DNA from: a virus
Lineage: Duplodnaviria > Caudoviricetes
Reading direction: 5' to 3' (one strand)
Length of the DNA: 57,310 nt
Virus record (IMG/VR): IMGVR_UViG_3300043438_000704
Coordinates: 1 to 57,310 of that record
Below the pieces are notes generated by a model. It was not told the origin of the DNA. It was given only the letters and a program-made list of their open reading frames with translations, and made no database searches. Positions 5,377-57,310 of the stretch are shown here, one piece after another (position 1 is the stretch's first letter; each line of letters opens with the position of its first letter). The position numbers and the translations under genes were made by a program.

Positions 5377-5575
5377 TGAGTGAGAAATACGAGGCAGTGA
5401 TAGGGGGTTATACCTTCTTGATGAAGGATGACGGGGTAATTGAGGTGTGGTGTGGATTGGATAGCGAATATCCAGAATCCTTTATTTACACGAAAGATGG
5501 AAGCATTTCTGATCGGAAGGCATTCGAGATGGAAATTATGGATTGGATTCTTAAAAACTAGGATACAATCGACCC

Positions 5576-6292
5576 ATGACTAAAATCGAATTTACCGACG
5601 AACACCTTCGGGTGATGATGACTGCTTTGGAAGTGTATTCCAGATTGCGGGCTGGGCAGATCAGGATCGCTATTGATGAGGCGTTTCGGGATATGCACCT
5701 ATCTTGGAAAGAACTGGAATCCATTGAAGAATTTGTAAGAGATATTCTATATCCCAAACCCGTCGAACTGAAATATGATGGACATGGGGGTTATTATGAC
5801 CAATATGGATGCACATACGATGAAAACGGTGTGCGAGATACTGAAGTAACATGGGAAGAGAAGGAGCGTTTGAAGCGTTCTCAATTACATGGTAATTATG
5901 GGGTTTGTCACGAAGAGATGATCAAGAGTGGGGGAACCTTGGCATACGAAATCTATTCCACGCTGCGTCAATATGTCTCTCTGAAAAATAACGATGGATA
6001 CGAAGGTGTGGGGGTGAATTATCGTAGTCCTTTGCAAATCACCGAAGTTACCTTACCAGTGATTGAAGGATTTACAGCGGAGAAACACTTTCCCATCAAA
6101 GGAAAGTCAATTGTTGATAAATTGGATAAAGCCCAAGAAACCAAAGATTATTCCAAGGTTTGGGAAGTGGTTGGGGAATACTTGAAACGGAAATATCCTG
6201 AATTGGAAGGCTATTCTCAAGCAAGGATTGAGAAAGAGGAAAATCATTATGTGGTGATTGTGAAAGGAGCTAGAAAGAAAAAAGGTGAATAA
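5576..6292 (+). CDS. Hypothetical phage protein (238 aa)
   Basis: Starts exactly at the +1 of the junction element. Confidence 0.85.
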   Translation: MTKIEFTDEHLRVMMTALEVYSRLRAGQIRIAIDEAFRDMHLSWKELESIEEFVRDILYPKPVELKYDGHGGYYDQYGCTYDENGVRDTEVTWEEKERLKRSQLHGNYGVCHEEMIKSGGTLAYEIYSTLRQYVSLKNNDGYEGVGVNYRSPLQITEVTLPVIEGFTAEKHFPIKGKSIVDKLDKAQETKDYSKVWEVVGEYLKRKYPELEGYSQARIEKEENHYVVIVKGARKKKGE

Positions 6293-6692
6293 AAGAATTA
6301 TAATTTTAAGAGGAACCCAAAATTCTGGAAAATCTACAGTCGCAAAGCTGTTTGGAGAAAAATCAATAATCTGCTGTGCCGATGATTACTTCACGGACAA
6401 TTGGGGTAATTATAATTTTGATCCAAATCTTCTGGGTGTTGCACATAGAATCTGTCGGGAAAAATTCATCAATGCTTTGGATGATCCTGATATTGACACT
6501 ATTGTAGTCGCCAACACGAATGCGACTCAAAAGGACTTTCAATTTTACATTGACTCTGCGGAACAACATGGTAATATGGTATTCTCGTTGGTGGTAGAAC
6601 GCCGACATGATAACCACAACAATCATAACGTGCCGCAAGAGGCGATTGATCGCTGTGAACAGAATATTAAAAATAGCTTGAAATTGAAATGA
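6285..6692 (+). CDS. P-loop kinase (AAA_33 / polynucleotide kinase-like)
   Basis: Walker A GTQNSGKST, CADDYF, VVANTN, and HNVPQEAIDR lid region. Confidence 0.8.
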   Translation: MNKRIIILRGTQNSGKSTVAKLFGEKSIICCADDYFTDNWGNYNFDPNLLGVAHRICREKFINALDDPDIDTIVVANTNATQKDFQFYIDSAEQHGNMVFSLVVERRHDNHNNHNVPQEAIDRCEQNIKNSLKLK

Positions 6693-6860
6693 AAGAAAAA
6701 AGACTAACTAGATTCTATCTGGCATTTTTGGATAATCCTTTGAATACTATCGTAAAAACATTGGAAGAGCGGTTTCCCGAATATGAAAATTTCAGGTTTA
6801 AAATCAAAATAACTTTATCCACCAATGAAGTAATGGTGTTTGGAACAAAAAAGAAAAAAG

Positions 6861-7541: not shown

Positions 7542-7777
7542 TGAAAAAGATAATTCACGTTCATCAGGCTAAGATAAAATCTAATGCTAAAAATTCCCTA
7601 AACGAACCTGTCATCACTTGCAAGACTTACAAGAGCAATGACTATGCCCATGAAGTTGAGATAATTTCGGATGGTAAAGTGGTTGCCAAGGTGGTGTATC
7701 GACCAGACAAACCCCTTTCATGTGGAGCAAGAGTGTGGATCGAAACGGAGGAAGAAGTGAGACTTATTAAAAACTAG
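7541..7777 (+). CDS. Small hypothetical phage protein
   Basis: Coupled start; ends KN* inside the junction element. Confidence 0.75.
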   Translation: MKKIIHVHQAKIKSNAKNSLNEPVITCKTYKSNDYAHEVEIISDGKVVAKVVYRPDKPLSCGARVWIETEEEVRLIKN

Positions 7778-8667: not shown

Positions 8668-11579
8668 ATGGACAAACAATCAGAAATCACTTATGAGGAC
8701 ATGCGTAAATACCTTGTCCAAAGTATCAACACCAACGCTAGAGATATTTGGGAACTGGAAGATAAGCTAAGAAGTGAAAACCAACGGGTTGCAGATGGCA
8801 AGGAATCTATTGTTCGGGTGGTAAAAAGATTTGGAATCATGGGGGAAGAAGCTGGTCACGAATTACAAAGGATTGCTTATGATCTTGATCCTAAAAATAA
8901 GGAGAATAAAATCAACAGACTTATCACCGACGCACTTGTTTACGTTGATGCTGAGTATGAAAGAGGAAAATACGAAGGTCGCGATATGAAAACACTCTTC
9001 GGTGCGCTTTTTGAAATGATTGGAACAGAGGCATATGCCCGATTTGATGCTGCATATTCCCTAAGATAGAGAGATTAAAAGTATGCAAAAAATATACGTT
9101 TTAAAATATGGTGATGTTGGGCAGGATGGTGTCATTATGGAAGCATTTAAAACCAAAACATCCTTTCGCAAACATGTCCGTTTGGAATATCCAGACGCAA
9201 TCGGTAGAAATAGAGATAAACCAAACGAACTTTATTGGGAGTGGGGTTGTCATGGGGAACCCAATGGGGGGTGGATCATGGGAGAAGAAGTAGAATTACA
9301 TTAAAAATATGATAAAATTAACTAAAATAGACATTAATCCCAACAGTGGAGCGATTCAAGCTTCAACCATTGAGGAATACCGCACTGACCAAGAGCGTGG
9401 TACATGGGGTCAATGGTTTGAGGGCAAGTCTCCTCCTGTGGATTACTGGATTGTGGGAGAGCTTATTGGAGAAATCCAAGTCGGAAAGGCTATTCTCATT
9501 GACCGTTGGAATCGCAATGGGGTTGTGATTCGGGGAATCATGCATACATCTGAAGTGATGAAGCTTGAAGAGAATGATGGAGTAACCTATATCACAACCG
9601 CAAACAGTCTGTATAAGATGGAGCAAGTGGACGAGGAGGATGTTTTAAACTATGAAATGGGTTTGTTTAAAAACTAGAATACACTGATCACATGCAATTA
9701 AAATTCATATCAACAAAAGAGAAGTTACCGAAGAACGGGGAATACATTTTCGCTATCAAAACGGATCGGCAAATAATGTATAAAGATGCAGGAGAACCAG
9801 CATTCATCAAATGCGAATGGGCGTGGAATGATGGGGATGGGGGAACTTGTGGATGTAAAAAATCAGAATCATCCATTGATAACATGCCGAAAGGATACAA
9901 GTATCTGGATATCATAGATGGGAATGGGTATGTGATTTGGACAAGTGAAACAAATCCGGGTAATCCAAAAATCGAGCATTTTTGGTGGATGTCTCAGAAA
10001 GAATTCGATAAGATTTGGAAAAACGCGAAACATTGAACGAAGTATGAAATGGATGTCAATATTTGTGGAACCAGAACCATCCGGTATGGAATGGGAACCC
10101 CCGAATTACAAGCCAGAGGACTACACTTGCTTTGATTGTCCCCATAAGGATACCTGTGAATACGCTTGGGATCACTACAATACGAATGGCGATTGCCTTG
10201 CAATGAAATAAAAAATAGAACACAATAACTTCATGCACGAATTTATTAAAACAGATAATTGGCAATACATCTTTGACAATTACGAATCCACCTATCTTGA
10301 TGGGTTGAAAGGGAGTTTTCTGATCCGTAGCTGGAGAATTGATGAAAATAGCCTTCACGAAGGTCTTAATGACATGGCAAGAGCCTACCAGACTGCTCAA
10401 CGCCAAGACAAGGAATGGGACGAAAGGGTGTGGTTCCCTTTTCTGGATGAGATCAAGGCAAGGGCTGTTGATAACAAGGTGATTCTCCATGCCAAACCAA
10501 CCCATGAATATTCAGGAAAACAAGACCAATGGTGGGAATATACATATTCAAATACCAATCCTCGTTACGGGTGGGGATACTCCTTCAATTGGATTGAAGA
10601 ACCCGATGAGAAAATCAATCACGATTTGGGGCAGAAGCTTTATGAATTGGATCGCTATCAAAGGAAATTCGACCAGCGTGTGTTCATGCTTCAAAAGCTG
10701 CTTGAGAAGTATCTGTTGAAATATGTCTATCGCATCTATAATTATGAATGGCTTGACAAGAACCAATTCTCCGGTAAGCTGGTGAAAATCACCTTGCGGG
10801 GAGATGAGTATTGGTATCACATTACCACAAACAGAAACGGTGTGCCTGTATGGGAGAACTTCATCTGGCAATCAAATCAAACGGAGGAAATTAATTTATG
10901 AAAAAAATCAAAGTTAGGAAAAATTTGTCAGATCATCTATATGAACTGGAAGGTTCTCTGGATAAAGCCATTGAATATTTGAAAGACCTCAAGGGAAAAT
11001 ATTCCCAATACGAAAATCTTCACTTTGATGTTGATTATGATTGGGATAGCAAACAGCTTTACCTTTGGGGTGAGATTGATGAAACGGATGCTGAATATGA
11101 AGCACGACTTGGACGCGAAAAGATCGTTCAGGATCAGAATGATAAGAGAGATCGTGAGCATTATGAACGATTGAAAGCCAAATTTGAAAATGAAAAAGAA
11201 TAAATTAATTAAAATTCTACAGAATATGGAGGGGAATCCCGACATTAAGATTTGGAATGGTTACGCTGAAGATTGGCAGGATTTCAATCTTGTTGAACAG
11301 GAATTTGTTAAGGAGACGGAGGAATTTATTCGTTGGCGAATAGAAACCGATTGGAAATTTAGGAATGAAAATTGGACTATTCCACCGGATGTTCAGAGAG
11401 AACTTGATGTCATCATCGCCCGACAATTAAAAGAGCGGGAATGGGAATTTCAAAATCCATATTTTTCAGGGGAGGATGAAAAACGGCGATATGGAAAGAA
11501 TCGTAAGAAGGTGTTTCTAATCAACGCTAAAATGCGGGGCAAAAGCACGTTTGATCGCATGGGTGATATTGATTATTAA
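8668..11579 (+). CDS. Run of hypothetical genes (8668-9069, 9083-9304, 9309-9677, 9692-10036, ~10044-10211, 10233-10901, 10898-11203, 11184-11579)
   Basis: Head-to-tail + strand ORFs; several start at junction elements. Confidence 0.75.
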
Positions 11580-11600
11580 AAACTAGGTTACACTACGAAT

Positions 11601-12293
11601 ATGAACTACAAATTTTTAATGGATCAAGATGAGCTTGAAAGGTTTATTGACTGGCTACCAGACTTGGAAGAGCATGAAATATACTACTTGGCAGCGTTTA
11701 CAAGAAAAAAATACTGTTCAGACGACCAACATCCTTGGATCAAGGCGGATAAAAATCATTTGAAAAGATTTACGTCCACCAAAGAGCGTTTGGTATCCAA
11801 AATCAAACAATTGGAATGTCCTCTTGGTTCTTACACCATGAAAGGCAAAGGTGGGGGTGAATTTGTAGTTCCCCAAGAGACGCTTGTTTTGTATATCTCC
11901 CCAAATCCCCGCGATTTATGGAAAGCCACTATCCAAGGTGCAATTGATCTTATGAAAGTTGTGCAATGCCAAGGCAAGAACAGCAATCCCCATCAGGAGA
12001 TTCTATCCACCATCCAAAGGACTGCTTCCAAGAAAAGGATCGTCACGTTCGATGTGGATGAGAAGAGTCAGAACGTTCTGGATCGCTTTACGGATGTCTG
12101 TGGCAAGGCTGTGGACGTTGTGGAGACGCGAGGTGGTTATCACTTCCTAGTCCATCCCAAGGAGATGCCCAAGAATGAGAAATGGTATCAGACTCTATCG
12201 GAGGTTTCGGACGTAACTGGTGACGCATTACTCCCGGTTCCCGGCACATTTCAGGGATCGTTTGTCCCTCGTATGATCATCAACAATCATTAA
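11601..12293 (+). CDS. Hypothetical protein with AEP/prim-pol-like motifs
   Basis: TFDVD (DxD) and ETRGGYHFLV (GxH) motifs. Confidence 0.45.
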   Translation: MNYKFLMDQDELERFIDWLPDLEEHEIYYLAAFTRKKYCSDDQHPWIKADKNHLKRFTSTKERLVSKIKQLECPLGSYTMKGKGGGEFVVPQETLVLYISPNPRDLWKATIQGAIDLMKVVQCQGKNSNPHQEILSTIQRTASKKRIVTFDVDEKSQNVLDRFTDVCGKAVDVVETRGGYHFLVHPKEMPKNEKWYQTLSEVSDVTGDALLPVPGTFQGSFVPRMIINNH

Positions 12294-12548: not shown

Positions 12549-13007
12549 ATGAAAATTGAAATCACCACGAAGGAGAGACAAAAAATTCTCAGATTCTCCA
12601 CAAAAATAAAACAAAAATTTGAAGATGGGGAAGTTGAACCCATTCATAATTCAAAGGAATCCCAAGATTTCATTAAAGAATTTTTAAAGAGTCGGGGAAT
12701 CGATAAACCAAGGGTTTATGAACAAGGAATCTATGCTTTTGGTAATGTGGGGATGCACACCGACAATCTCTCCCCAAAATCCGCGATGACGATGTGTCTG
12801 TTGATTTCCGGTAGTGGTAAATTGTTCGCTTGGGATGGTAAAAAGGTGAACGAATATCGTATCAGTAAAGGAGATGGTGTTATTTTTGATTTCAATCTTC
12901 CCCACTCATTTGAAGCTGATAAAACATGCCAAGCATTTCTAGTGGACATTCCAAAAAAATATAAGAAGAACTTACAAAATGATAAATATGAAACTCCCAA
13001 ATTCTGA
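12549..13007 (+). CDS. Cupin / 2OG-Fe(II) oxygenase-like protein
   Basis: HTD...H metal triad (GMHTDN ... LPHSFEA). Confidence 0.6.
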   Translation: MKIEITTKERQKILRFSTKIKQKFEDGEVEPIHNSKESQDFIKEFLKSRGIDKPRVYEQGIYAFGNVGMHTDNLSPKSAMTMCLLISGSGKLFAWDGKKVNEYRISKGDGVIFDFNLPHSFEADKTCQAFLVDIPKKYKKNLQNDKYETPKF

Positions 13008-15921: not shown

Positions 15922-16209
15922 AATATAAAAATATAATATGAAAATGTGGTTCAAAAAACAAACGGTTCCGGTATCGAACGATACCAAGGAAATAGATGTG
16001 GTTCAACTGTGGGAAGTGCGTTGGTATTCCAGATATGGGGAATGGAATGGTAATACTAAACCAGAAATCGAATGCTTCACCAGTGAAAAAGACGCGGAAG
16101 AATTTGCCAAATCATTGAAAAACGCTTTCAATTTGATTCGCCATACCAGCGGAACAAAAGTGACGGTGGTGAAGGGTAAGGAATTTAAAAACTAGAATAC
16201 AATTTTCCA

Positions 16210-16406
16210 ATGACATGATCGGCAGCATCACAACATTGCCAGAACCTCCCTCTACTATTAACTTAGCATGGAGACTGGCGGGATCGGGAAGATGACCCTT
16301 CGGGGATCGGAAAAAACGAGTAATCGCAAGATGGCGACTCATCGACTCCTAAAACCCGGATGCTGAAAAGGTGGGCGCACACCGTTCCGAAAATGTCACC
16401 TTTTTT
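16210..16406 (+). ncRNA. Candidate structured non-coding RNA (~200 nt)
   Basis: The junction element at 16186 leads into ATG-ACA-TGA only. GC-richer gap with helices CAGCATC/GATGCTG, GCCAG/CTGGC, CTCC/GGAG, CCC-TTCG-GGG, ATC-GCAA-GAT and a terminal AAAAGGTG/CACCTTTT stem followed by a U-tract. Confidence 0.65.
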
Positions 16407-18047: not shown

Positions 18048-18074
18048 GTTTAAAAACTAGACTACAATAAGATC

Positions 18075-19052
18075 ATGAATGGATACTTGGGAGAATTTGA
18101 AGTGGATATGGAAGACACGCCATACAAGGGTTATGATAAATCCGATTGGATGGCTGAATATATCCAAATGTATGGGAGTATTGATGGTAGCCATCACAAG
18201 GATTGGGTGATGGATCAATGCATCCGTATTTGGAGTGGTTCTGAAGTAATCGTCAAGGAAGCTCGCTGGAAAGATGGTGAGCAAGAGCATTCAGAATTTA
18301 GAATTAATGTTGGGGAACCCACCAGAAAATATGAAAAATTGGTGGCGGCGGATACCGAAGAAGACGGATATGAATGGAATCAAGGAATAGCACCTTAAAA
18401 ACTAGACTACAATAAGACAATGCCAACAGGATATACAGCAGCAGTGCAAGACGGAACAATCACAGAATTTAGGGATTACGCACTTCGTTGTGCCAGAGCT
18501 TTTGGAGCTTGTGTGATGCAACGGGACGACGATCCATCAGAACCTCCAAAGAAACAGGAAGAATCTTCCTATTATCAGGAAATGGTTGACGAGATTCTGA
18601 AAGAAATTGAAGAACTGAAAAATCTTTCCGATGATGAATTGGTGGAATCTGAAAAGAATGCAAATCTGAGAGAAATCGAGGGATGTAAGCAACGTATTGA
18701 AGATAAAAAAATCGAAAGACTTCGATATGAAGATATGTTGGAGAAGGTGAGAGCTTGGGAATCCCCGTCTTCCAAACACGATAATTATAAGGAATTCATG
18801 ATCAGTCAATTGGAAGATTCCATTCGATGGGATTGTAGTGGTAGTTATTACGAAGACAGTCTTCTACAAGCTGTTTCCAAATTGAAAAATATGCCAACAA
18901 CCAAAGAAATTAGGGAAGAGCGTTTTTCACGCTTACAAAGGGATTTTGAATATTATCAGAAAAAACTAGCAGAAGAGAAGGAACGAGTATCTGGTAACAA
19001 CCAATGGATCAGACAGCTTTATGAATCACTTGAAAATGGCAGCAAATCCTAA
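18075..19052 (+). CDS. Two hypothetical phage genes (18075-18398, 18420-19052)
   Basis: Each starts at a junction element; the two elements share TAAAAACTAGACTACAATAAGA. Confidence 0.85.
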
Positions 19053-19140
19053 AGAATAGTTCCTATTTTCCATGAATTATTTGGTAATAACCACTTCAAC
19101 AGGTTTAGAAGAAGGGGGACTATAGACTCCCCTCCGTAGA
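19030..19140 (-). ncRNA. Candidate TnpB omegaRNA 3' scaffold and guide
   Basis: The minus strand has hairpin GAGGGGA-GTCTATAG-TCCCCCTTC overlapping the tnpB 3' end, then AATAG-GAA-CTATT. omegaRNAs are known to overlap tnpB 3' ends; boundaries are uncertain. Confidence 0.45.
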
Positions 19141-20168: not shown

Positions 20169-20180
20169 TCTCTCTAATAC

Positions 20181-20188
20181 TATTTAGT
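20181..20188 (-). promoter_or_regulatory. T4-type late promoter-like element ACTAAATA upstream of tnpB
   Basis: The minus strand reads GACTAAATA-GTATTAGAGAGA-ATG. Confidence 0.5.
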
Positions 20189-20196
20189 CTTTTAGC

Positions 20197-20224
20197 TTGA
20201 CTTTTTTGAAAATGTGGTTAAAAT
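20197..20224 (+). promoter_or_regulatory. Sigma70-like promoter TTGACT-N16-TAAAAT
   Basis: ATG of a 59-aa ORF (20232-20411, MSDEYTIKKEY...) lies 7 nt after the -10. Confidence 0.6.
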
Positions 20225-29329: not shown

Positions 29330-29953
29330 ATGACAACGCTGGTTAAATTTCCCCGAACCTCCCATCTCCCTTGGAGTGAAGGATGCACATCTGATGATAA
29401 GATCATTCCTAATTTGGATAGTTTGATGAATCAGAATGTAGTTGTCACTGAGAAGTTGGATGGTGAAAATTGCACTTGGACTAAAGATAAAATCTATGCT
29501 CGCTCTACATCTTCCGATGGTGGTTTGCTTAGGGAACGAGTGAAGGCACTATGGTCTTCCAAACGATGGTTGATCCCCGATGGATTGAGAATTTGTGGGG
29601 AGAATATGCAATGGGAACATTCTATTCGATATGAAGATTTGGAATCTCCTTTTTATATTTTTGCATTGTTTAATGATGAATTCTGCATTGGTTGGGATGA
29701 TGTTCTCTTTTATTCCGAATATATAGAAATCCCCACTGCCCCTATTATTTTCGAGGGGAAATTTGACAATTCTACCATCGATTTATTAAAAAATCTAAAT
29801 TTAAATGGTCGAGAAGGATATGTGGTTCGCAAAAAAGAATCATTTAAGTTTGATGAATATTCAACGTGCGTTGCAAAATTCGTCCGAAAAGACCATGTTC
29901 AGACCAACATCCACTGGACAAAAAATCTTAAAGAAAACGGTTTTAAAAACTAG
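29330..29953 (+). CDS. RNA ligase family protein (short, Rnl2-related)
   Basis: Motifs KFPRTSHLPWS, TEKLDGEN, CGEN, EGYVVR and AKFVR. Confidence 0.85.
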   Translation: MTTLVKFPRTSHLPWSEGCTSDDKIIPNLDSLMNQNVVVTEKLDGENCTWTKDKIYARSTSSDGGLLRERVKALWSSKRWLIPDGLRICGENMQWEHSIRYEDLESPFYIFALFNDEFCIGWDDVLFYSEYIEIPTAPIIFEGKFDNSTIDLLKNLNLNGREGYVVRKKESFKFDEYSTCVAKFVRKDHVQTNIHWTKNLKENGFKN

Positions 29954-30255
29954 AATACCATCACGCCATGCAAAGACTTATTGTAGCAGCAGCAATGCTC
30001 ATGGATGATGGTGACGTTATCGTGGGTGTCCGTCATTATTCTCCAGAGATGCGAAAAACGCTTGAAAAAGCTTATGGTGAGAAGTATCATCTAAGAGTTA
30101 AGGAACAAGGGTTTGTTGATCAAAAGGGTGTTTTTCTCAATCGCAAGGATGCTTGGGTAATCGCTGAACAGGAAGGTCAAATCAGACGTAAAGTATCGAC
30201 CGAAGGAACACTTTATTCAGAGAATCTTTATTAAAAACTAGACTACACTTGAGCC

Positions 30256-31215: not shown

Positions 31216-33813
31216 AATTATGGGAGTAGATAATAGCACATATATCGGGGTATTTTTGGAAGTTCCAATCTTTGAAGGAATGGTTCCATATACCGTTAAG
31301 GTGAATTCCAAAGGTAAGGAGTATGATGAAGATATGCAATTCTGTCCAACCACTGGAGAGAAATTGAAAACGATTGAGAAATCAAAAAAGGAAAGAATAT
31401 ATCCACACCCATACATAGAAGATGAGAATGATGCAGATTATGATACTTTCTGGACGCCGGAATATCACGAAGGTAATAGAAATTTTAAATACTTTCTGAT
31501 CAATAGTAGAGCAAATCATGTGAGTCTTGAATCGTGTGAAACATACGAATTCTTCGGTAAACGTGATTTTGATGAGGAAATTGAAAAATTTAAAGAAAAA
31601 TATAAAAAATATCTTGAGTATTACAAAAGCCTTGGGTATGATTATAAGATCAAATGGGGGTGTGTGAATTATGCACACTGATAAGGATAGACGGGAGATA
31701 GGTAGAGAAATGGTAATTGCATATGATGAAACATCTTATATGAAAGATGCGATCAAAAGAGTTATTTCAAAATATCCACAAATACCAACAGATGTTCTTG
31801 AGATGATGTGGTATTCAATTGATGAACATATAGACAAGTATGAAGGATCTTGAATTAGCAAACGAAATGATCGCCAATCTGGACGCACACAAAGCACAAC
31901 CGGATTGGCAAGAGACAATGGATCAATTCAAACCAATGATTGAGGAGATCATGGAAGAGGATCAATGCAATGCCATGAAAGCATCCATCCCAATTCTCAA
32001 GAAATTCAAAGAGAATGACGATCAATATGGAGCGGGTTTGCTCATGGCGATTGTCACTGATATGATGTTGGAAAATGTTAAAAATTAAAATTATGGAAGA
32101 ACACGATTATTACAGAGTTCAAGTAACCAAACATAGTTACACGGATGTTTACATTAGAGTCCCCAAGGGAGAGACTGTGACATTCAAGGATAGGAAGCTT
32201 ATCAAGGAAGCCACGGTTAAGACAACCACGAAATATGATTGGGATGACTATGGGTGGGAAGATGATCTTGAGGTGCATGAAGTGGAGAAGGTGTCTGAAA
32301 AGGATGCGACCCAATACACTTTCTATGATGGGTTTGATTTCAAATGCCTTTAAAAACTAGAATACACTTGTGACACTATGAGAAATAAATTATACATTCA
32401 TAATGGTGCTGGGCATTACATCGGATCGAGAGTAATCGTTTGCGCCACTTGTAGGGAAGATGCTGAGAGCCTTATCAGAAATGAGTTGGATAAAGCTGGA
32501 CTTCGTGATGAGCCGTTGAATGTTACGGAAGCGAAGTTCAGTAAAAACATGGTGATTCTATTTGAAGACGGGGATTATTGACATGGAAATCATCCCCGTA
32601 AAATACAAAATAAAACAGGACATCAATGAGCATGTCTATTACATTGAATTAATGGGAACTGCTAAAGAACCGGGATGGTTTGTCACAATTCGTAGTGGTA
32701 GTGATTGGGCTGTATTGTGTAAGGATGGTGGTTGGTCTGCTTGGTCGGATTATAAACAATCATACGCCACTCCAGAGGAAGCTTTGGAGTTCTGGAAAAG
32801 TATTTACGTTAAAAAATAGCATAGAATAAAGACATGATTGACGACATCTACAAAATTCTAAGACATCATGACAAAGCCGCAAAGCTGTTGAGGGATATAG
32901 AGGATAACAAGATCGCGCTTGCATCCATCATCGCTAGGGCGGCGGATGATATTAAAGAGTTGCGGCGGGAAAACGCCACTTTAAAAGCCAAAATCAAGAA
33001 GTGGAAAACATCTTGAAAACCATCGGCATTGTGGTAGGATTCCTTTGTGGATTGTATTTGATCTACCTAATTTTTAAGAAAATATTATGAAACTTAATCA
33101 ACGAGAACAGACCATCATCAAAGCCATGCGAGGTGGGGAGAGATGTATCTACATGCCTTATGCTGGAAGATACAATCCCAATGCATATTATACCATTGGT
33201 AACATTGGAAAATGCACCCGCGAAATCAATAAGCTGATTAAGTTGGGTTTGGTTGGACATGAAACATTGGGATTCAATAAAGAAAAAGTATCCTTAACAT
33301 CGGAAGGGGAAGCTTTCAAATTGGAATTGGAAGAACCCTATGATGTGTGGGTGGTTAATCGTAGCTGGGGGTTGAAAGTTGAGAAGTATTCAGGATTTCT
33401 CAAGAATGACACTCTACTTATGGCCAATGGTAGCTCTGTTAAGAAAAGTAAAGATAAGGAATTCTTCACGGATAGGGATAAGGCGTTTGAACGTGTCATT
33501 GCTTTGCAAGAACAATATGTCAGGATAGCGGAAGGAAAGGTTGGGATTGAAAAGAAAGCCTTGGAAGATATGGAACATCATAGGAAGAACCCTGATTTGG
33601 ATAAGGCTGGGTATCTTTAAAAACTAGAATACAATCAATTCATGAAGCAAGATTATTCCGTTGATATTTGGCGAAGTGTGAACGGCGCGTTGAAAGCAAT
33701 GTTGGAAGAGCATGGAACCATCACCAAACAGAATTACGGTAGTGCTGGTAAAAGAATTGCTGGACAAATTGAAACCATGATTCATAATCAAATTAGAAAA
33801 CAAATACAAGAAA

Positions 33814-44637: not shown

Positions 44638-46764
44638 ACCACTTTTAAAAACTAGATTAAGATTTGCACATGAAGACACAACAAGAGATGTTCTACCAAT
44701 CCCAAAGGAAAATCGCAGAACGATACCATGTCATTGATTGGCTCGCAAAGCAGGATAACAAGCCGACATTGGAAGAGTTGGAAATCCTACGGAAAAAGAA
44801 TCCCGCATGGAACTCGTATCCTGAAGCATTCGCTTTTAAAAACTAAACCATAATTGAGACATGATAACAGGAATTATATTCATTACAATGTGTTGGCTGA
44901 TGATATCGGGAAACTTTCTATGGGGACTTGGGTTGCTGATAGCATACCTATGGATGCCGAGTTTTGATTAAAAAATAGATGATAATACGCATATGAAATT
45001 ATTTGAAGATACTTTTAAATTGACAGATGAGGGGATTAGGATTCAGAACGAATTTGAAGATTTGGTGAAACCATTTTTTGAAAAATATCGTGATGTGACA
45101 AATCCAATTGAATTTGATTGGCTTGTAACACAACCATTTGAAATGCAAAAATGCGCCAATTATGTTAAACGTGTTACAAATTTAAGAAGCAACATATAAT
45201 TACAACATGACACATCTACTACAACTTAAACGGGATTCCCATAACACATATCTCAATAACGAGCATTTGAAAATTTCGATTGGGGAATCCACAACATCGC
45301 TTGAAATCTCCGATTATGATAGGGTGATCGAGGTTGGCAACGATGATCTGCGAGTGATCCTGTCAATTCTGAAAGATAAAAACTAAGAAGCTCTGAAAGA
45401 AACAAAAATAAGCGATATTTAAAACATGAACGAACATCCATTTGACGATTTCCAATTCTCCATTCCCTTAACATCGGAAAATGAGAAATATCTGAAATCC
45501 AAGAAATATGAAAAACGCTCTGGAACATGCGCCTATCCAGAAAATAGGAAGGTTTTTCGGGTTGTCCCATTCAAGAAATGGTATTGGGAGGACACTTATC
45601 GTTCCCAAGTTCACATTGATGTTAAGAAAACCAAAAAGATTGTGAGGTCTTTGGAAATCAGTGGTGATTACGAAAAATAAAAACTAAACGATAATACGCA
45701 TATGAACAAAGAAATTGCAGAACTGATTGTTGGCTATAGTGACGACCTATCCCTTCACAAAGATTACAGTGGACGGGGAATGTATGGAAAAACCACAACC
45801 GCCATCACTGGTGATAGTATGAACGAGCTTATGGCAGCAATCGGAGACTGTTTCTATGATATGGTTCTGGAAGCAATGAGTGATGGGAATGATTATGATG
45901 AGACAAATGCTGTGGAACTGACCAATGTTCTCTCAAGTATCCGACAAGATAGCCTTGGGATGGGATACATTTTTTACTGATAAAAACTAGAACACAATAC
46001 AAATATGAAGACAACGACACAATCACTGACAGCCCAAGAAATCTTGGATCGTATTTTAAACGCTCGCGGCCAATTCGTGAAAGCGGTTTGGAAGAGCAAT
46101 CCAACTCCTGCTGCCGCTCACAAGAAAGCGGGAATCCAACTGGAGAAACATACATCCGCTGTATGCCGTGCGGGTATCAACTTCGCCAATCTCTCAAGCG
46201 TTCAACAAGGCATTGAGGAAGGCACGCGAGGAGAGGTTCAAGAACTACCTTTCGGCACTTGGCTTCACTTCCCATATATCATTAAGCACACTCCGAAAGG
46301 TTGTGATGAAGAGCAACATTATGTTCGCTTATATCCAACAGAAACTCGTAGTGAAACCATTTATTTTGTGAATGGTGAACAAGTTGATAAGGATAACTTC
46401 GCTCAATACCTAACCGAATCGGATAAAAAGAAAATGTATTCAGGCGAAAAGCCCGAATGCTTCACAATCAAGCGGGAGAACATCCTTGCCACTGAAGACT
46501 TTGGAGTATAAAAACTAAAATAGAATTACATCATGAACAAGAAAAAAGCAATTGAAGAGTTGGAAAGCACACTGGACAATGTGGCACATGAACTTATATC
46601 CACTGATTATTTCTCAGTGGAGGCTTATCATGAATTGTTGAGTGTATATTACACATTTCGTAAGCAATTTCATAGCATCATTCGTGAGGATTTTCCGAAT
46701 GAAGAATTTGAAAATTTCTAATAAAAAAATAGATTCTCAAAAACAAAACAAAAAGAAAACAAAC

Positions 46765-50063: not shown

Positions 50064-53000
50064 TCTTAAAAACTAAAAGATAATCAAACCATGAAACTAT
50101 TCAAAAGAGAAACGACACAGGAAAAGATTGACCGATTGGAAATCAAACTTGCGGGGGCGTTGGCGGCGGATGAAACCTTTCGGGTTTTAATTAAAAGTAA
50201 AGTTCCCATGTATAGTGTGGAAAACTTTATTAAAAATCGTGCAAAGGTCGCAGAGATTCAAAAGGAACTTGAAATTTTAAAAACTAAAGGATAATACGAC
50301 CATGGGATGCGACACAAAAGGATATGTAGTTACCGACAACATTGATGTTCGGGAGATTGGTAAGCGAGTGCTTGCCGTAGTAAGAACGATTCAGGGGGAA
50401 GCTACAAGCACATTTGTAAAGAATGATAATGTATTTGTAAAATCTGTATATGATCCTGATTGGAATTACTATATCTTCCGTTTCAAGGATGGGGTTGACC
50501 AACGGCAAATGTTTGTCCATATGGACACGGAAGATTTCGAGGAATGCCACGGGGAACTTGGCAAGCGGGGAATCATTTTCTCTCTGGGAATGTGGGGGAA
50601 TAGCGTGGAACTGATTGGGAAATTTCTGGATGTTTTTCAGGACATGGGAGCTTGCTATATCCAAGAAAACGATTGTGGGGATGCTCCAGTTGCGTATAAA
50701 AACTAAACCATAATAAGCGCATGAGCGATGTTGATATCCAAGAGATGAAGCAGTGGTATTGGGAAGCTTCCGATGAGTGGATCAATGGGGTGTTGCTAAA
50801 GGCCAAAGAAAAGGCTCAATCCGCAAACAAATCAATTTTTATCATGTTTGATTATGGTTGTGCCTATTTTGAACATGATCCCGTGAATGTGAGAGACATC
50901 ATTCTGAGAATCGATCCATAAAAACTAAAGGATAATACGACCATGAACAAGATACCAAGGGAACAGATCGAAAAGCTTGCCAATCGCGCAAGGGTGAATG
51001 AAACCGCTGTGTGGAACTTTCTGGGAACCGCACACCATTGCGGAAGCATTCCCAATGCCCTGATGAATCTGGACATGGATGCCCGTATGTATGGGTGGAA
51101 CAAGGAAACCAAGCAAGCGATTCAGGATGGACTACTGAATAAAAACTAAAGCATAATCATAATCACACCATGACCACAACCAGAAAAATTATTGAATCAA
51201 TCGATCTTGAAAAACACGGGGAAAGTGTTCATGGGAGCGAAGACCTTGCTGGAGTATTCGGAATTTATAATTACGTCGAATTTGATGATCGTATCAAAAT
51301 GGTGTATGTTCGCCCCCATTATTGCACGGATTCTTGGGTGGGTGTTCGGGCATACTTCCTTGATGGGGAATTTGTCGCAATCTCCACACAAGTAGGTCGG
51401 AAATGGGATGAGGAATTCCAATTCGTATCAAACGAAGCTGCGATGAAAGTTAGGGACTATGTATTATCTTTCGTTGAACCGAAATATGATATCAAAATTG
51501 CCGATAAGCTGGATGAAGAGATTGATGATTTCTATACAGTTGAATATGCGGAACAGATTCTTCACAAGCATGGCATATATGAAGGGGAGCGTGTTGAAAT
51601 CAAGCTCAAAAGGAGAGATTGGAAAGATTTCCATACTACAACAATTGTTGGTAAGGATGGAAAAGAGCGGGATGTTGATAACAGGGATATCAAATTATCC
51701 TACGTTGATCTGTCTTAAAAACTAAACCACAATCCACACATGACAATCGAAACCGTAGGAATTGAAGAGATTGAAGGGGAGAAATACCACATTGGAACTC
51801 CCATGGAACATCTGACGATCAAGGAAGCCAAGGCATGGATCAAGGAACATATGTTTGACCCCGATTATTGGGACTACAAGGCGGAACGCAAGGGATTCTT
51901 TCAGGAAGTCAAGTTCATCCATATCCTGAAAAACGGGGAAGTCCATACGGAATACCTAACCAACTTCGCATAAAAACTAGAGGATAATAAAGCCATGAAA
52001 GACGAAATTATCACAAAGAAATTCGGAAAATACACCGTCACCTTGGAACTCTTTGAGGAAAGTGGTGAACAGCGTTCATACTGCGATATTGTGAGCAGCA
52101 ATGGGGGAGCATCTTCCCTTGGTTTTGCTCTGGATATGGGATACCTTGAGAAAACCAACGGATCGGAAGAAGAGATTTCTGAGGATTTTCTCTCCAAAAT
52201 TGAGGATTGGGCATTGGAGAACGGATATTAACATAAAAACTAAACCATAATCACACCATGAAAGAAATTACTGATACCGAACTCCTGATCATTCGTCACC
52301 TGAAACGTAATAATTCAAATGATAAGATTCTGAAAAGACTTGTGGGGAGATATTACGCTCTGTATCCTGAACATGTTGAAAGGGATGAAATTTTCCATTG
52401 TCTCTTTGATATCATTGAAAAGTTTGATCTTCTTTACTACACGGAAAAGGGTAAAGATATCCGTAACTTTTTCATCTACAAGGATTCTTTCATGGATGAT
52501 GATATTGATATGTTGGATATGTGGATTCAGAAAGCGAAATCTCGCATCCGGTTATCGGAAGTCGCCAAGTTCCCAAGATATCCTAAACCAGCGCGTTCGC
52601 GCAACCGTGATAAAAACTAAACGATAATCAAACCATGTCCTATCACACTGACAAACTCGACAAGCTAACGGAAGATGAGCGGGATGCCCTACTGGATTTC
52701 CTTGAGAACATCACGGAAGGCGATATTCTGATCATCGCCAACGAAATGCAGATGGATCAAGCCGACAAGCGAAAGCTTTGCCGTGCATTGGAGAACTTCC
52801 AAGAAGCTTAAAAACTAAACCATAATAAAGACCATGAACGAACACAAAATGTATGGAATGAAAGTCACACGGGATCAATTCGGACAATTGTTGGATGATT
52901 ATTCTGAAAGTGGATATACCAATTCATCTTATTCCGATATCATCATTGATCTTTTCAATGTGGAGGATCATAGAGCGGAATTTGCGGAACTCATTGGATT

Positions 53001-54055: not shown

Positions 54056-54087
54056 CCCCTCTTCCTTGGTGGTTCTTGGGAGAGGGG
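54056..54087 (+). terminator. GC-rich hairpin before a junction element
   Basis: 10-bp stem CCCCTCTTCC/GGGAGAGGGG with a weak U-tract. Confidence 0.5.
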
Positions 54088-56571
54088 CAAATCTTTAAAA
54101 ACTAAAATAAAATAATAATATGTTCAGACACATTGGAGCTATCGTAGCGGGACTTTCATCTGCGCTTGTAACTGGAGGACACCTTTTCACTTCTCCCTAT
54201 CACTTTGGCGTTTTCATCGCATTCCTTTTTGTGGGGATGGTTTTGGGAGCCATTGTGGATTCCGTGCTTAAAAACTAGATCATAATCAGCGCATGGCTAA
54301 AACACCACAACAAAAGGAAGCTGCCGAACTATGGAGACGGGAGCAGCAAGAACTGGAGTGGATGGCAAAGGACAGGAGCAAGGCTTATTATCTTCCGAAA
54401 TATATCAGGGACATTGGCAAGACGGGGGATGTGGAATTGGACGAATTGGTTGATGAAATGCGGAAGATTGCCTATAAGATTGATGAACATTGGAGCAAGC
54501 AACCTTAAAAACTAGACCACAATACGGACATGAAAGCAACAATCGATCCCAAGGAAGTGACAGTGAGACATAGCATCCGGGAGGATGTGGGAAGGGAATT
54601 CCTGACCGTGGATTGTCCCGAAGGATGGGATGATGTGAAGAAGCTTGTGAAAAAGGTTCTTACGTTTGAGGGGCGGAAATTCGCTTACACGGGATGGAAT
54701 AGCGATAGGAACGAAGCTTTCTTCGCTCGCCCTCTGAATGGGGTGGAGATGGTTGCAAGGATTTCTTAAAAACTAAATCATAATCACAACATGACAAATA
54801 GATACTCAGTAGGATTCAAAGACCCTGAAATAAAGTGCGGGGTAACGGAAGATTATCCTTTGCTTGTGCCGATTGTTGATTATCGGATGTTTGGGTTCGG
54901 GGAAGTGATTGGGTTCGCTTTGGGGGAGTATGAGGCAACAACTTTAGTAGAGAAGTTGCAAGCCTTGGAAGATTTGAAAGATAAAGGTTTTAAGATTGAA
55001 CAATAACATGAACGAAATTCAAAAACGATTGGAATATCTTCGCGGGGAGATTGAAAAGGAATGTATCAGTTATACGGAAATTGTGGAACTGGAACACCTA
55101 CAAGAATATATCGATCCCGATGATGTTGTGCTTCTGGAATGGGCTGGAGTGCCTGAATAAAAACTAGACGATAATAACGACATGATATTTCCACAATACA
55201 AACAAGCAACATGTGATGCCACCTTTTCTGAAAAGGTGATGGGGAAATGGTATTGTTCATATTTTGAAGAACTTAATGGTCGGAATTTCGATAGGTATCT
55301 TCATCCTGATGGGTGGAAAAAATATGCTTATTGGTGGAATGCGAAAGAAGAGTGTGAAAATACATTCCAAAAATTTAATCAATCACATTTAAACGTGGAG
55401 GAATTTGAAGTTGACAATGCTATCGCAGAGGAAGAGTGGTATTCAGATTATTTGGAACAACAATTCTCTTAAAAACTAAAATAAGATTAACGCATATGGG
55501 AGCCGGATGTTACTACACACATAAATGCAATCGCCAAAAAGCTTGCTGGATTGACTTCAACCATTCCGATAATGAGGGATACGAGGAAGATGATTGGGAT
55601 ATTATGCGGATGTGGGAAGAGGATATCATTGACAACATTGAATGTCTGCTTGCCAAAATCGGGTATCGCAATATGCAAAACGGTCTTTGTAAGGTGGAGC
55701 TTGTGCCGACATATTACGGGGATGGTATGATCATCGACATATCTCCAGCAATGGAGGAATGGGAACCGTCTTACAATCTCTTTCTAGCCAATTTTGATCG
55801 TATGGAGGAAAACATCCTGAGATGCTTGCACAAGGCGGGATTTGAACTAAGGATTGCCACAAGCGGATACACTTCCGGCCAATACATCCCCAAGGGATGT
55901 GTTAAAAACTAAAGAATACTTCAAACATGAAACACAAAGCTGGTCTGTATCGGTTTGAGAGAAGTCCAGACTTGTTCGCCGCCATCAAGGGATGCCAAGG
56001 GGATACTCTGGAAATCCGTTTGACGGAAAAGGAAGCGAACACCCTATTTCAGAATCAGCTATTCCAAAGGCTGGGATTTGTGGGATGGGCATATTTGGGA
56101 GAATAAAAACTAAACAATAATAACAATATGAAAGATGTAATACACGATTTCGGAAAAAGTAGGGTTCGCCGTCTGGTGGATGGGAGCTATGTGGCGGAAG
56201 TTAATGTGGGGTGGATTTTTAAGTATTGGAAAGGCATTTCAAAATCCACTGGTTATCTGTGGGATCGCGATAGTTATAATTTCTGTAAAGTTCCAACAAA
56301 GGAACAAGCCTTGACATTGCTGGCAACACGTGGCTTTTAAAAACTAAGATAAGCTTTGACCATGCGACAATACAAAAACATCATGGATGGGTTGGAAACG
56401 ATGATTCAAGACATTGCCAAAAAAGAAAAAGGCAATCTTACGCTTGAATCCAAGCTTCATATGAAAGTTGTGAAAAAAGAACTTGCGGAGATGCGTCGGC
56501 AATTGATTCTTCTACACTTTGATATTGAGGACATTTACAACATCGCTTAAAAACTAGGATACCATTACGAC

Positions 56572-56940
56572 ATGAAACAAACACTTACAACTTACCAAGC
56601 GGCGCAACAACTCCATGACGACAAGGACGGGGGATGGACTTGGAACGGGGCGCAAGCCCTTGTGGAGTATCTGGAAGAGCTTGAAGCGGACATGGGGGAG
56701 GAAATCGAATTTGACAGGGTTGCCCTTCGCTGCGATTTTTCTGAGTATGAAAGCCTTGTGGAATGGGCGGAAGGATACTTTGGGGATGATGCTTGGAGAG
56801 GAGAATTGAACGCTGATATTGATGACGAATCCGGCAACTCCGAAGATATTGAGGATGTGGAGGAAAAGATTCGGGAATATATCCATGAACACGGGCAATT
56901 GATCGAATTCAACGGGGGGATCATCGTTTCATCGTTCTAA
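56572..56940 (+). CDS. Highly acidic small protein
   Basis: About 33 D/E versus 7 K/R in 122 aa (manual count). Confidence 0.8.
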   Translation: MKQTLTTYQAAQQLHDDKDGGWTWNGAQALVEYLEELEADMGEEIEFDRVALRCDFSEYESLVEWAEGYFGDDAWRGELNADIDDESGNSEDIEDVEEKIREYIHEHGQLIEFNGGIIVSSF

Positions 56941-57310
56941 TATGACAGGAAGAGCATTATTTGAATTGTCCCTGCTGGGATTACTAACTTGGGTATTGAT
57001 CGGAATGATTGCCCTTCAAATCTTTAAAAACTAGCGCAAAATAAGCTCATGCAATGGCAAATGATAGAAAAGGACAATCCCCTTGCGGTTCATGTAATAT
57101 TTGAATCCAAGGAAACCGGGGAAGCGTTTCTGAAAAACACGGTTCCCGATTATGTGGCAAGGAGTCTTTACATGGATAAGACCCTGACAGCCGAAAGCTT
57201 TGAGATAGTCCCAAGACCATTAAAAACTAAACGATAATCAGCGCATGAACAAATACCGGATCACTTACAAGGACTGCGGCGAAATCATCACGGAATATCG
57301 CAAGGGGGGG

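Follow-up and report, generated by a model that had tools for sequence, protein, structure and literature searches.

Introduction

What does a short sequence do that stands, always on the same strand, in front of 65 otherwise unrelated genes of one virus? The question is raised by the IMG/VR record IMGVR_UViG_3300043438_000704 of a tailed virus (Duplodnaviria; Caudoviricetes), whose 57,310 nucleotides were analyzed in full and are called the window below. The repeated element consists of a ten-nucleotide box, TAAAAACTAR, two further bases, a hexamer of the form nAnnnT and, in most copies, an ATG exactly six nucleotides downstream (N6). This element is most likely a promoter without a -35 element, and its geometry predicts that the mRNAs of this uncultured T4-like lake phage start at the start codon. 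The best overall explanation, which we regard as probable though well short of certain, is a -35-less, leaderless promoter of the accessory arm of the phage, used by the host polymerase together with a factor that reads the box.

Copies and anatomy of the element

The box TAAAAACTAR was found in 66 exact copies in the window, all on the plus strand and none on the minus strand, while 0.35 copies were expected from 100 dinucleotide shuffles (3 in the richest shuffle). A mismatch-tolerant scan added three copies with the box TAAAAAATAG (A for C at box position 7) at 10209, 32810, and 44969, each followed by a hexamer and by an ATG at N6. The total is therefore 69 elements (Table 1), the same number of same-strand copies that a first-pass annotation, made from the sequence alone, had counted. 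Its other counts were reproduced as well, namely the span from the first element at 5552 to the last ATG at 57245-57247, the 56 copies with the ATG at N6, and the 7 copies with a 3-nt leader starting with A. The A at position 2 and the T at position 6 of the hexamer, which had been described for all 68 complete copies, are kept in 68 of the 69 copies, the sole exception being the degenerate hexamer AGCTCT at 45377.

The distance between the hexamer and the ATG follows a narrow pattern. The 56 copies with the ATG at N6 comprise 53 of the 66 exact copies and the 3 variants, and from 55 of these ATGs a frame of at least 20 codons opens or runs to the end of the window; the ATG of the element at 16186 opens only ATG-ACA-TGA. 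The 3-nt leaders are ATT in one copy, ACT in two, and ACA in four. In the 6 remaining copies, the ATG lies 1, 2, 6, 11, 25, or 29 nt beyond the predicted start. The offsets seen in the window are 0, +1, +2, +3, +6, +11, +25, and +29, and the ATG never lies closer to the hexamer than N6.

A position table of the 66 exact copies contains a single conserved block, [T/A]-TAAAAACTA-[G/A]-A-[a/c]-[t/c]-A-[c/t]-A-A-T, followed by five free bases, a C, and the ATG. Upstream of the box the table has no conserved column, so there is no -35 element; a TTGACA-like hexamer 16-18 bp upstream of the -10 is not part of the element, and positions -15 and -14 are R and A, so that the TG of an extended -10 is lacking too. 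The hexamer has the properties of a sigma70 -10 element, with A at -11 and T at -7 in 68 of the 69 copies, and all ten positions of the box are more constant than this hexamer. The two parts are not independent, as boxes ending in G go with TAC hexamers (28 vs. 0) and boxes ending in A with [CG]AT hexamers (14 vs. 5).

The expected start site, a purine about 7 nt past the hexamer with a pyrimidine at -1, is present in the sequence. The base preceding the ATG is C in 49 of the 66 exact copies, and the -1/+1 pair is CA in 47 and TA in 11 of them (58 of 66 together). The pair is also kept in the copies with a 3-nt leader, so it belongs to the start site and not to the start codon. The arrangement is that of a Pribnow box 6-8 nt from a start codon without a Shine-Dalgarno (SD) sequence: the distance is 6 nt in 56 of the 69 copies, and SD-like words are depleted. 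The stop codon of the upstream frame falls inside the box in 56 of 68 elements, and the gap between stop and start is only 14 or 21 nt.

Conservation among relatives

More than 112 IMG/VR stretches contain the exact 18-mer that is most frequent among the elements, and two of them are complete relatives with terminal repeats, G001 (207,489 bp) and G002 (197,682 bp). The window is collinear with positions 2,686-55,229 of G001, with 76-94% identity over 32.0 kb of aligned blocks. G001 has 114 forward copies of the element and one reverse copy; they occupy its first 75 kb on one strand, with few others elsewhere. Among its ATG offsets (n = 125), 75 are 0, 16 are +3, and one is -1.

A comparison of 14 fully aligned orthologous sites of the window and G001 gave 138 identities in 140 positions (98.6%) for the box and 57 in 78 (73%) for the 6-nt discriminator, third codon positions being 74.5% identical. 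These values suggest that the box is under selection and that the discriminator is free to change. Two trivial causes of the repetition were rejected. The repeats are not remnants of gene duplication, since BLASTP among the 65 element-led proteins found no pair at E<=1e-3, and a stop-codon function does not explain the conservation of the box, because the variants in the relatives G002, G003, and G008 lose one or both stops. The box differs between lineages, with CTAG in the window, CTAC in G002, a box starting with A in G003, and CCAC in G008. G008, whose portal is 84% identical, has the box AAAAACCAC; it retains the purine 7 nt past the hexamer, and the ATG stands at +1 or behind leaders of 3-7 nt.

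Further promoter classes and translation without Shine-Dalgarno sequences

The leaderless reading was strengthened by two other promoter classes of G001, both of which also put the start codon at +1. The late-like class, [C/T]TAAATA-N5-ATG, lies on both strands before structural and other genes. An ATG that opens at least 40 codons stands exactly at the predicted +1 of 37 of its 93 heptamers in G001, compared with 0-2 in eight Markov controls, and the distribution has a sharp peak at offset 0, with at most 6 at any other offset. The corresponding figure in G002 is 33 of 104 heptamers, and the geometry is retained in a subclade with portals only 59-62% identical. In the accessible text of Nolan et al., the late promoter of the T4-like phage Aeh1 is given as CTAAATA "beginning at -12" (PMC1524935); by this numbering, +1 falls on the ATG of the late-like class. 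A late-type CTAAATA heptamer also occurs in the window at 3466-3472, 21 nt upstream of the ATG of the gene at 3494-4573. This gene, located within the element-free first 5.5 kb, has a predicted leader of 16 nt, of which there are few in the arm.

The canonical class, TTGACA-N16 (ending in TGn)-TAAnnT-N5/6-ATG, gave 16 matches in G001 with 3.0 expected. It precedes the genes for thymidylate synthase, glycosyltransferases, a phosphoesterase, and probably the DNA polymerase. Canonical promoters were not enriched in the window (68 vs. 56.8 and 47 vs. 50.4 expected), and the existence of this separate class suggests that the phage has temporal classes of genes. That three recognizable types of promoter should all place the start codon at the expected start is difficult to account for without leaderless expression.

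Consistent with the earlier claim that the starts lack an SD sequence, an SD-like word at -20 to -5 was found before 3 of 59 box-led starts of G001, compared with 19.8% of random internal sites. Such words are likewise depleted before the other ATG genes of G001 (17 of 156). Of these genes, 95 of 148 overlap the upstream stop codon or sit at most 15 nt from it, 32 of them with ATGA, suggesting that translational coupling is their likely mode of initiation. By comparison, the late genes of a Kyanoviridae phage are preceded by ordinary leaders of the AAGGAG type. The 5' ends are also unstructured, with a mean minimum free energy (MFE) of -2.2 kcal/mol compared with -4.6 kcal/mol for random 40-mers. 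The SD-free start at +1 is a trait of the clade and presumably of its host.

The reading of the element as a promoter of leaderless genes is well supported by these sequence features, and the following mechanism can be proposed. The host RNA polymerase would transcribe the arm, with a sigma factor of the sigma70 family reading the nAnnnT hexamer as the -10 element (-12 to -7) and with the TAAAAACTAR box (-24 to -15) standing in for the missing -35 and TG elements. Transcription would start 7 nt past the hexamer, on the A of the ATG, with C at -1. The first gene of each unit would be translated from a leaderless mRNA or from one with a 3-nt leader, and the later genes by stop/start coupling, again without SD pairing. 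Most of this had been anticipated in the first-pass annotation: a phage promoter with a sigma70-type -10 (A-11/T-7), no -35, transcription beginning at the A of the ATG, and no SD sequence were all supported.

Transcription units, cassette borders, and tRNA genes

Element-led genes account for 65 of about 152 modeled plus-strand genes in the window. Their share is 36 of 44 in the segment 44646-57310, and 29 of 87 in the segment 5552-44645 outside a box-free stretch. No enrichment of intrinsic terminators was seen (20 vs. 14.0 and 19 vs. 14.1 expected); transcription should therefore run on into the cassettes downstream, and the cassettes are not independent units. Together with the stop codons inside the box and the gaps of 14 or 21 nt, the lack of terminators means that the transcripts must overlap. 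The earlier statement that nearly every accessory gene is its own transcription unit went too far in this respect. Judged by the mean MFE (-1.3 vs. -4.6 kcal/mol), the RNA of the window is least structured in the element region, and no Rfam family matches the window.

The elements also mark the borders at which the genomes differ. Where the window and G001 align, an element is found no more than 10 nt from 46 of the 99 homology-block ends, compared with 6% for random points. Being short, identical, and placed at gene borders, the elements probably double as crossover points for the shuffling of cassettes. The doubled CATAAT hexamer of the element at 51140-51172 fits slippage or recombination inside the element.

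The elements are not restricted to protein-coding genes. They precede tRNA genes in G002, G003, and G008, with the hexamer 5-15 nt from the mature 5' end, so that the predicted start lies at or just before this end. The presence of elements before tRNA genes indicates that they are not a translation signal only. In G001, the whole 20-nt spacer between tRNA-Met and tRNA-Arg is one element. The same genome contains a duplicate unit (57597-57769 and 58970-59147) that consists of an element, an open reading frame (ORF) of 22 codons with a conserved C-terminal half, and a gene for tRNA-Leu(UAA); the ORF might encode a leader peptide or represent a small gene linked to the tRNA.

Search for a protein that reads the box

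The box sits outside the reach of sigma region 4 and of the TG contact, and the genomes were searched for a protein that might read it. No match to MotA (PF09158, PF09114) or AsiA (PF09010) was obtained at E<=10 in G000-G004, which include the two complete genomes, a range of searches that divergent forms could escape. Sigma region 4 (PF04545, PF08281) gave nothing over the cut-off in the two complete and two to three partial relatives (from G003-G005, varying with the search). Scans for box readers returned only weak helix-turn-helix (HTH)-like stretches in frames of 312-350 aa of G002 and G003. The profiles PF00940, PF00562, and PF00623 for phage RNA polymerases were absent from G001-G005, the search with PF00940 being weak because its control matched nowhere. 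Since no phage RNA polymerase was found, the host enzyme presumably transcribes the phage, and with no phage polymerase, MotA, AsiA, or sigma region 4 at hand, the host enzyme with its primary sigma is the default.

The first-pass annotation had proposed an activator or a dedicated phage sigma as the reader and had advised a search for their genes. This search found a late sigma of the gp55 type, and none of MotA, AsiA, or sigma region 4. A dedicated sigma has become less likely, because the gp55-type late sigma was the only one detected, and the activator stays a guess.

Several individual candidates were examined. The genes behind the canonical promoters of G001 were compared with PHROGs and Pfam and set aside as thymidylate synthase, glycosyltransferases, a DHH phosphoesterase, and unknowns; among the unknowns, those of 224, 144, and 131 aa were dropped because they are absent from G002, itself a user of the box. 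The 359-aa protein encoded at 3494-4573, which has a weak N-terminal HTH_23 match, is a member of a metallophosphoesterase family. A conserved early protein of 166 aa has 90 relatives, all of them uncultured. Its fold was predicted with good confidence (pLDDT, predicted local distance difference test, 84) but has no counterpart in the PDB (best E 0.46, with a faint likeness to FEN1/GEN1), and the Atlas gave no usable match. The twelve largest ORFs of G001 were also scanned, and then ten large ORFs (seven shared with the first set) were compared with PHROG, five of the ten being without a family. Four of these five proteins were scanned in Pfam, where only PKD domains were found, in the protein of 694 aa.

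A dedicated protein, made or brought in by the phage, that reads the box while docking beside sigma region 2/3 has in our judgment slightly less than an even chance. In its favor are the box, which is more constant than the -10 element, the lineage-wide variants CTAG, CTAC, and CCAC, and the separate canonical promoters with the temporal classes that they suggest.

Weighing of alternative explanations

Several observations weigh against a leaderless promoter served by the host polymerase and a box-reading factor. The start site is a prediction from the geometry of the element. No box-reading protein was found in the searches for MotA, AsiA, and sigma region 4; the 166-aa protein was dropped as an activator because its predicted fold is no recognizable DNA binder, and G001 proteins of 854, 755, 694, 592, and 529 aa belong to no PHROG family. 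It is unclear how a newly made factor could be squared with more than 100 early-arm promoters firing at the start of infection. Elements also lie inside read-through transcripts, where they could act at the RNA level, and the enrichment of homology-block ends may only reflect the coincidence of elements with gene borders. Finally, tRNA-Ile, tRNA-Met, and tRNA-Arg of G001 (57791, 59643, and 59738) begin 0 nt past the hexamer, so that a start 7 nt further on would fall inside the tRNA, and a canonical promoter of G003 abuts tRNA-Tyr in the same way. The abutting tRNAs of G001 may presumably mature from read-through precursors, the T of the hexamer being the base before the RNase P cut.

The same leaderless promoter might work with no phage factor, the box being a strong Z-element that is read by the β' zipper of the host polymerase and replaces the contact between the -35 and sigma region 4 when the -10 is good. 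We consider this unlikely, though it deserves serious attention, and the first-pass annotation had overlooked it; the Z-element occupies the same place as the box. According to the accessible text of Yuzenkova et al. (2011), the Z-element is 5 bp long, lies 4 bp upstream of the -10 (AACCT in T7 A1, AACAT in T7 A2, AAATT in a crystallized fragment), replaces the -35 with the Thermus aquaticus polymerase, and contributes with the enzymes of E. coli and B. subtilis (PMC3173786). The corresponding 5 bp of the element are AAACT in all 66 exact copies, which is AAnnT-like, and the element has neither a -35 nor a TG. The profile searches found no activator gene, and a factor-free promoter would solve the immediate firing of the arm after infection. 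Sigma region 4 may also be blocked by the phage in the manner of AsiA and gp39, which would shut off host and canonical promoters and leave the element promoters active; a switch at the sigma4/flap interface is known for T4 AsiA and for gp39 of a Thermus phage, as far as the available text goes (PMC4124052). However, single substitutions in the Z-element have less than a 2-fold effect, and its consensus is called loose in the sections available (PMC3173786). A loose consensus leaves the invariance of ten positions, including T-24 and TAR at -17 to -15, unaccounted for, and in G008 the five bases are mostly AAACC, with the T of AAnnT replaced.

We see a small chance that the element acts mainly on RNA, either as a processing site at which long read-through transcripts are trimmed to the length of single genes or as an A-rich, unstructured landing pad for ribosomes in a host that does not use SD sequences. 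With no terminators between the cassettes, transcription from promoters further upstream passes through the element; its RNA is the least structured, no SD is used, and three tRNAs of G001 start right after the hexamer. However, no meaning in RNA is known for the A2/T6 hexamer, the C-A start, or the fixed 6-nt gap, all of which are features of promoters, the six nucleotides beside the ATG are the least conserved part, and the late-like and canonical classes, which are recognizable promoters, share the geometry. The distance to the tRNA 5' ends also varies from 5 to 15 nt in the relatives, and Rfam is silent on the window. Very improbable, in our view, is a divergent polymerase or sigma of the phage itself, possibly borne in the virion, for which the whole 18-24 bp would be the promoter, as with promoters of the T7 type or the phiKZ/AR9 type. 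Such an enzyme would suit the contiguous block of high information, its strictly one-stranded use in more than 100 copies per genome, the large G001 proteins without a PHROG family, and the tRNAs abutting the hexamer, which fit a start inside or right after the element. It is at odds with the T4-like core and its gp55 late sigma, as T4-like phages use the host RNA polymerase. No T7-like or multisubunit polymerase was matched in the two complete and three partial genomes, the A2/T6 signature and the hard N6 minimum are what a sigma70 -10 element predicts, and use of the host enzyme is evident from the canonical TTGACA/TGn promoters that the genome also carries.

The phage and its accessory arm

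The window, which is the whole IMG/VR record and is rated 28% complete, is the accessory "early arm" of an uncultured lake phage of about 200 kb with a T4-like core. This core is seen in the collinear G001, and the window itself holds none of its genes. Beyond the arm, G001 codes for a gp20 portal (PF07230, 1.5e-87), a T4-type terminase (PF03237/PF17289), gp43 DNA polymerase and SbcCD-like gp46/47 (phrog_262, phrog_100, phrog_77), and a helicase. The gp55-type late sigma (149 aa; phrog_234, 1.9e-23) is encoded adjoining gp46/47 and gp43, and its weak Sigma70_r2 signal was present in all five genomes searched. The closest cultured portals are only about 28% identical, indicating a deep, uncultured branch, and a megablast of 20 kb against phages gave no match. 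The DNA occurs in 24 public runs, each a DNA metagenome of lake water, with no RNA run listed among them.

A 466-aa virion protein of G001 (138443-139843, minus strand) is 62-66% identical to proteins of marine and freshwater T4-like phages of Synechococcus and of the SAR116 podovirus HMO-2011. It is far closer to cultured phages than the portal is, which points to horizontal transfer of a structural gene. The segment 76-207 kb of G001 also contains genes for glycosyltransferases (397, 255, and 226 aa), thymidylate synthase, a protein with a Mom-like domain, and tRNA nucleotidyltransferase. The DNA of this phage may thus be modified, which could matter for how its promoters are read.

The genes of the window are accessory and include those for an epimerase, three members of RNA ligase families, phosphoesterases, a KaiC/RecA-like ATPase, DUF932, DUF7275, and many small ORFans. 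The RNA ligase genes are located at 12979-14067, 29330-29953, and 33814-34773 and comprise one RNA_lig_T4_1 and two RNA_ligase members, one with a PHA02142 OB-fold; together with the several phosphoesterases they resemble an extensive tool kit for RNA repair. Only one gene is clearly on the minus strand (19077-20168), and it codes for a 363-aa TnpB/Cas12f-like protein (PF07282, 1.1e-19). It lies just beyond the element-led gene at 18420-19052 and opens a 3.6-kb element-free stretch (19061-22680). G001 has a different minus-strand ORF of 460 aa (20635-22017) on the opposite side of the homologous gene, and the two look like independent insertions of mobile genes at neighboring cassette borders. 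The GC skew is positive in all 2-kb bins of the window and the cumulative skew climbs steadily, in line with transcription of nearly all genes from one strand.

Table 1. Elements of the window. The ATG column gives the place of the start codon relative to the predicted start (+1, the seventh nucleotide past the hexamer).
Position	Strand	Hexamer	ATG	Product and remarks
5552..5578	+	TACAAT	at +1	238 aa
7768..7794	+	TACAAT	at +1	54 aa
8644..8670	+	TACACT	at +1	133 aa
9668..9694	+	TACACT	at +1	114 aa
10209..10235	+	CACAAT	at +1	222 aa; variant box TAAAAAATAG
11577..11603	+	TACACT	at +1	230 aa
12525..12551	+	TACAAT	at +1	152 aa; heads run of ~10 genes to ~16195, including RNA ligase
16186..16212	+	TACAAT	at +1	opens 2 codons only; next ATG at +6
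18051..18077	+	TACAAT	at +1	107 aa
18396..18422	+	TACAAT	at +1	210 aa
22681..22707	+	TACGAT	at +1	161 aa
24803..24829	+	TATGGT	at +1	147 aa
25261..25290	+	TACAAT	after 3-nt leader ATT	202 aa
26689..26718	+	TACAAT	after 3-nt leader ACT	99 aa
28448..28474	+	TACCAT	at +1	63 aa
29306..29332	+	TACACT	at +1	207 aa; RNA ligase family
29944..29970	+	TACCAT	at +1	88 aa
30232..30258	+	TACACT	at +1	319 aa; KaiC/RecA-like ATPase
32351..32380	+	TACACT	after 3-nt leader ACT	67 aa
32810..32836	+	TAGAAT	at +1	60 aa; variant box TAAAAAATAG
33618..33644	+	TACAAT	at +1	64 aa
35941..35967	+	CACAAT	at +1	92 aa
36627..36653	+	TACAAT	at +1	107 aa
37788..37814	+	TATAAT	at +1	77 aa
38605..38634	+	CACAAT	after 3-nt leader ACA	186 aa
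40532..40558	+	TACACT	at +1	67 aa
40757..40786	+	TACACT	after 3-nt leader ACA	83 aa
41499..41525	+	TACACT	at +1	266 aa
42817..42843	+	TACACT	at +1	108 aa
43158..43184	+	CATAAT	at +1	90 aa
43472..43498	+	TACAAT	first ATG 29 nt on	DUF932 gene; G at predicted +1
44646..44672	+	TAAGAT	at +1	58 aa
44837..44863	+	CATAAT	at +1	36 aa; A-ending box
44969..44995	+	GATAAT	at +1	68 aa; variant box TAAAAAATAG
45377..45403	+	AGCTCT	25 nt on	degenerate hexamer; only copy without A2
45678..45704	+	GATAAT	at +1	92 aa
45981..46007	+	CACAAT	at +1	168 aa
46509..46535	+	TAGAAT	at +1	62 aa
47142..47168	+	TACAAT	11 nt past predicted +1	62 aa
47363..47389	+	CACAAT	at +1	98 aa
47674..47700	+	CATACT	at +1	63 aa
47887..47913	+	GATAAT	at +1	72 aa
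48127..48153	+	CATAAT	at +1	70 aa
48590..48616	+	CACAAT	at +1	138 aa
49278..49304	+	CACAAT	at +1	253 aa
50067..50093	+	GATAAT	at +1	67 aa
50278..50304	+	GATAAT	at +1	134 aa
50697..50723	+	CATAAT	at +1	66 aa
50919..50945	+	GATAAT	at +1	68 aa
51140..51172	+	CATAAT, tandem double after one box	6 nt past second copy	182 aa
51716..51742	+	CACAAT	at +1	77 aa
51971..51997	+	GATAAT	at +1	78 aa
52234..52260	+	CATAAT	at +1	120 aa
52611..52637	+	GATAAT	at +1	58 aa
52809..52836	+	CATAAT	one base late	71 aa
53047..53076	+	TACACT	after 3-nt leader ACA	83 aa
53500..53529	+	TACACT	after 3-nt leader ACA	110 aa
54096..54122	+	TAAAAT	at +1	52 aa
54269..54295	+	CATAAT	at +1	71 aa
54506..54532	+	CACAAT	at +1	79 aa
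54767..54793	+	CATAAT	at +1	71 aa
55158..55184	+	GATAAT	at +1	96 aa
55470..55498	+	TAAGAT	two bases late	138 aa
55903..55929	+	AATACT	at +1	59 aa
56104..56130	+	AATAAT	at +1	70 aa
56338..56364	+	TAAGCT	at +1	62 aa
56548..56574	+	TACCAT	at +1	122 aa
57025..57051	+	CAAAAT	at +1	62 aa
57221..57247	+	GATAAT	at +1	frame continues past window end

Host

Several clues to the host were followed. The TnpB gene has no relative in genome contigs, and the epimerase of the window is at most 43% identical to proteins in genomes of many phyla. Searches for psbA and WhiB found neither, and the pattern of box plus ATG is absent from the five named genomes examined. The exact 18-mer has 25 matches in genomes, about 14 of them in Bacteroidota; none is followed by ATG, and the matches were set aside as chance. 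In Bacteroidota, promoters have a -7 box TAnnTTTG and only 5.5% of mRNAs are leaderless, according to the part of the source available (PMC9723704). Promoters of this type are not enriched in the phage, and this result and the canonical TTGACA/TGn class both speak against Bacteroidota as the host. Actinobacteria and Deinococcus-Thermus typically have leaderless genes with a Pribnow box but use SD sequences for their other genes, as the accessible text has it (PMC6028130); the lack of SD sequences argues against a typical actinobacterial host. In addition, the segment 57-76 kb of G001 contains 13 tRNA genes, all for codons ending in A or U (one is called Ile with anticodon UAU), suggesting that the host is richer in G+C than the phage (~40%).

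Significance

If transcription starts as predicted, the element represents a natural and very large family of -35-less promoters, with 69 members in the window and 114 exact copies in G001. The second element in the spacer would make it directly testable whether a contact of the spacer with the β' zipper or a new activator close to sigma carries a whole transcription program. A T4-type phage would then run its early, replication, and late genes without leaders or SD sequences, which would bear on leaderless translation outside Actinobacteria, Deinococcus-Thermus, and archaea. The calling of genes in viral metagenomes would be affected as well, as start codons could be fixed from the promoter. 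The 28-bp unit that merges stop, promoter, and start would be among the most compact gene punctuation known to us.

Comparison with known systems

The literature was searched by the sequence AAAAACTAG and by the topics of leaderless, T4-like, cyanophage, PeSL, and zipper promoters, with supplements outside the scope, and no description of the element was found. To this extent the first-pass annotation was right to call the architecture undescribed; what it missed are conceptually close systems, namely PeSL cassettes, the Z-element, and leaderless Pribnow-box genes.

The middle promoters of T4 likewise combine a -10 of the TAnnnT type with a conserved box further upstream, lack a -35, and serve a T4-type phage dependent on the host polymerase, as described in the available text (PMC1524935). 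They differ in the MotA box, TGCTTtA near -30, whereas the box here is TAAAAACTAR at -24 to -15 and nothing is conserved at -30. In addition, no MotA or AsiA gene was found here, the mRNAs are predicted to be leaderless, and the elements occupy the accessory arm, for which T4 uses early sigma70 promoters.

The PeSL/PmSL cassettes (Arbiol 2010; Comeau 2014) are likewise repeated before ORFans in hyperplastic regions and at mosaic junctions, and in the accessible text Arbiol, Comeau, and Krisch proposed PeSL as crossover points in such regions (PMC4122927). The element shares this arrangement, a repeated promoter before 65 unrelated genes and close to 46 of 99 block ends. However, PeSL is described there as a stem-loop terminator with -35, -10, SD, and start codon, while the element has no stem-loop, no -35, and no SD, and only 14 or 21 nt in all lie between the genes, the stop codon of the preceding frame falling within the box.

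To our knowledge, the β' zipper has not been linked to any natural family of promoters this large. The Z-element resembles the box as an AAnnT spacer element 4 bp upstream of the -10, first seen in early promoters of T7 (PMC3173786, in the sections available). As described there, it is 5 bp long, loose, and weak, whereas the box is 10 bp long and invariant.

The leaderless Pribnow-box genes of Actinobacteria and Deinococcus-Thermus (group C of GeneMarkS-2) also have the -10 6 nt from the ATG and a 5'-terminal AUG (PMC6028130; PMC12340547). In the accessible accounts of those genomes, 25-50% of operons are leaderless and the others use SD sequences, whereas here three promoter classes all have leaderless geometry and SD sequences are depleted. 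No added invariant box accompanies the pattern there. The Thermus phage phiYS40 reportedly makes many leaderless transcripts, a result said to come from work by Sevostyanova in 2007.

Two further systems are more distant. The late promoter of Aeh1 has the same heptamer at -12 as the late class of the relatives, in which a gp55-type sigma is present (PMC1524935); as far as the available text goes, the likeness concerns this late class and not the box element, and here the start codon follows the heptamer. In the halovirus HF2, short repeats between the genes of a tailed virus carry promoters, as was shown with reporters (PMC8707807). That host is archaeal, the promoter is of the TATA type, the repeats are 29-58 bp long, and the transcripts are very long in the portion of the source available, so the likeness is an analogy only.

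We tentatively propose a clade of uncultured T4-like lake phages that express most of their genes leaderless from three promoter classes. In the largest class, the polymerase would be taken over in a novel way, with a phage protein yet to be identified or the polymerase core itself reading a 10-bp spacer box (-24 to -15), a place where no phage activator is known, and with sigma region 4 and the -35 dispensable. The element combines known kinds, namely the regulatory cassettes of T4-type phages, -35-less promoters, and leaderless genes, and there is a real chance that the reader of its box is new.

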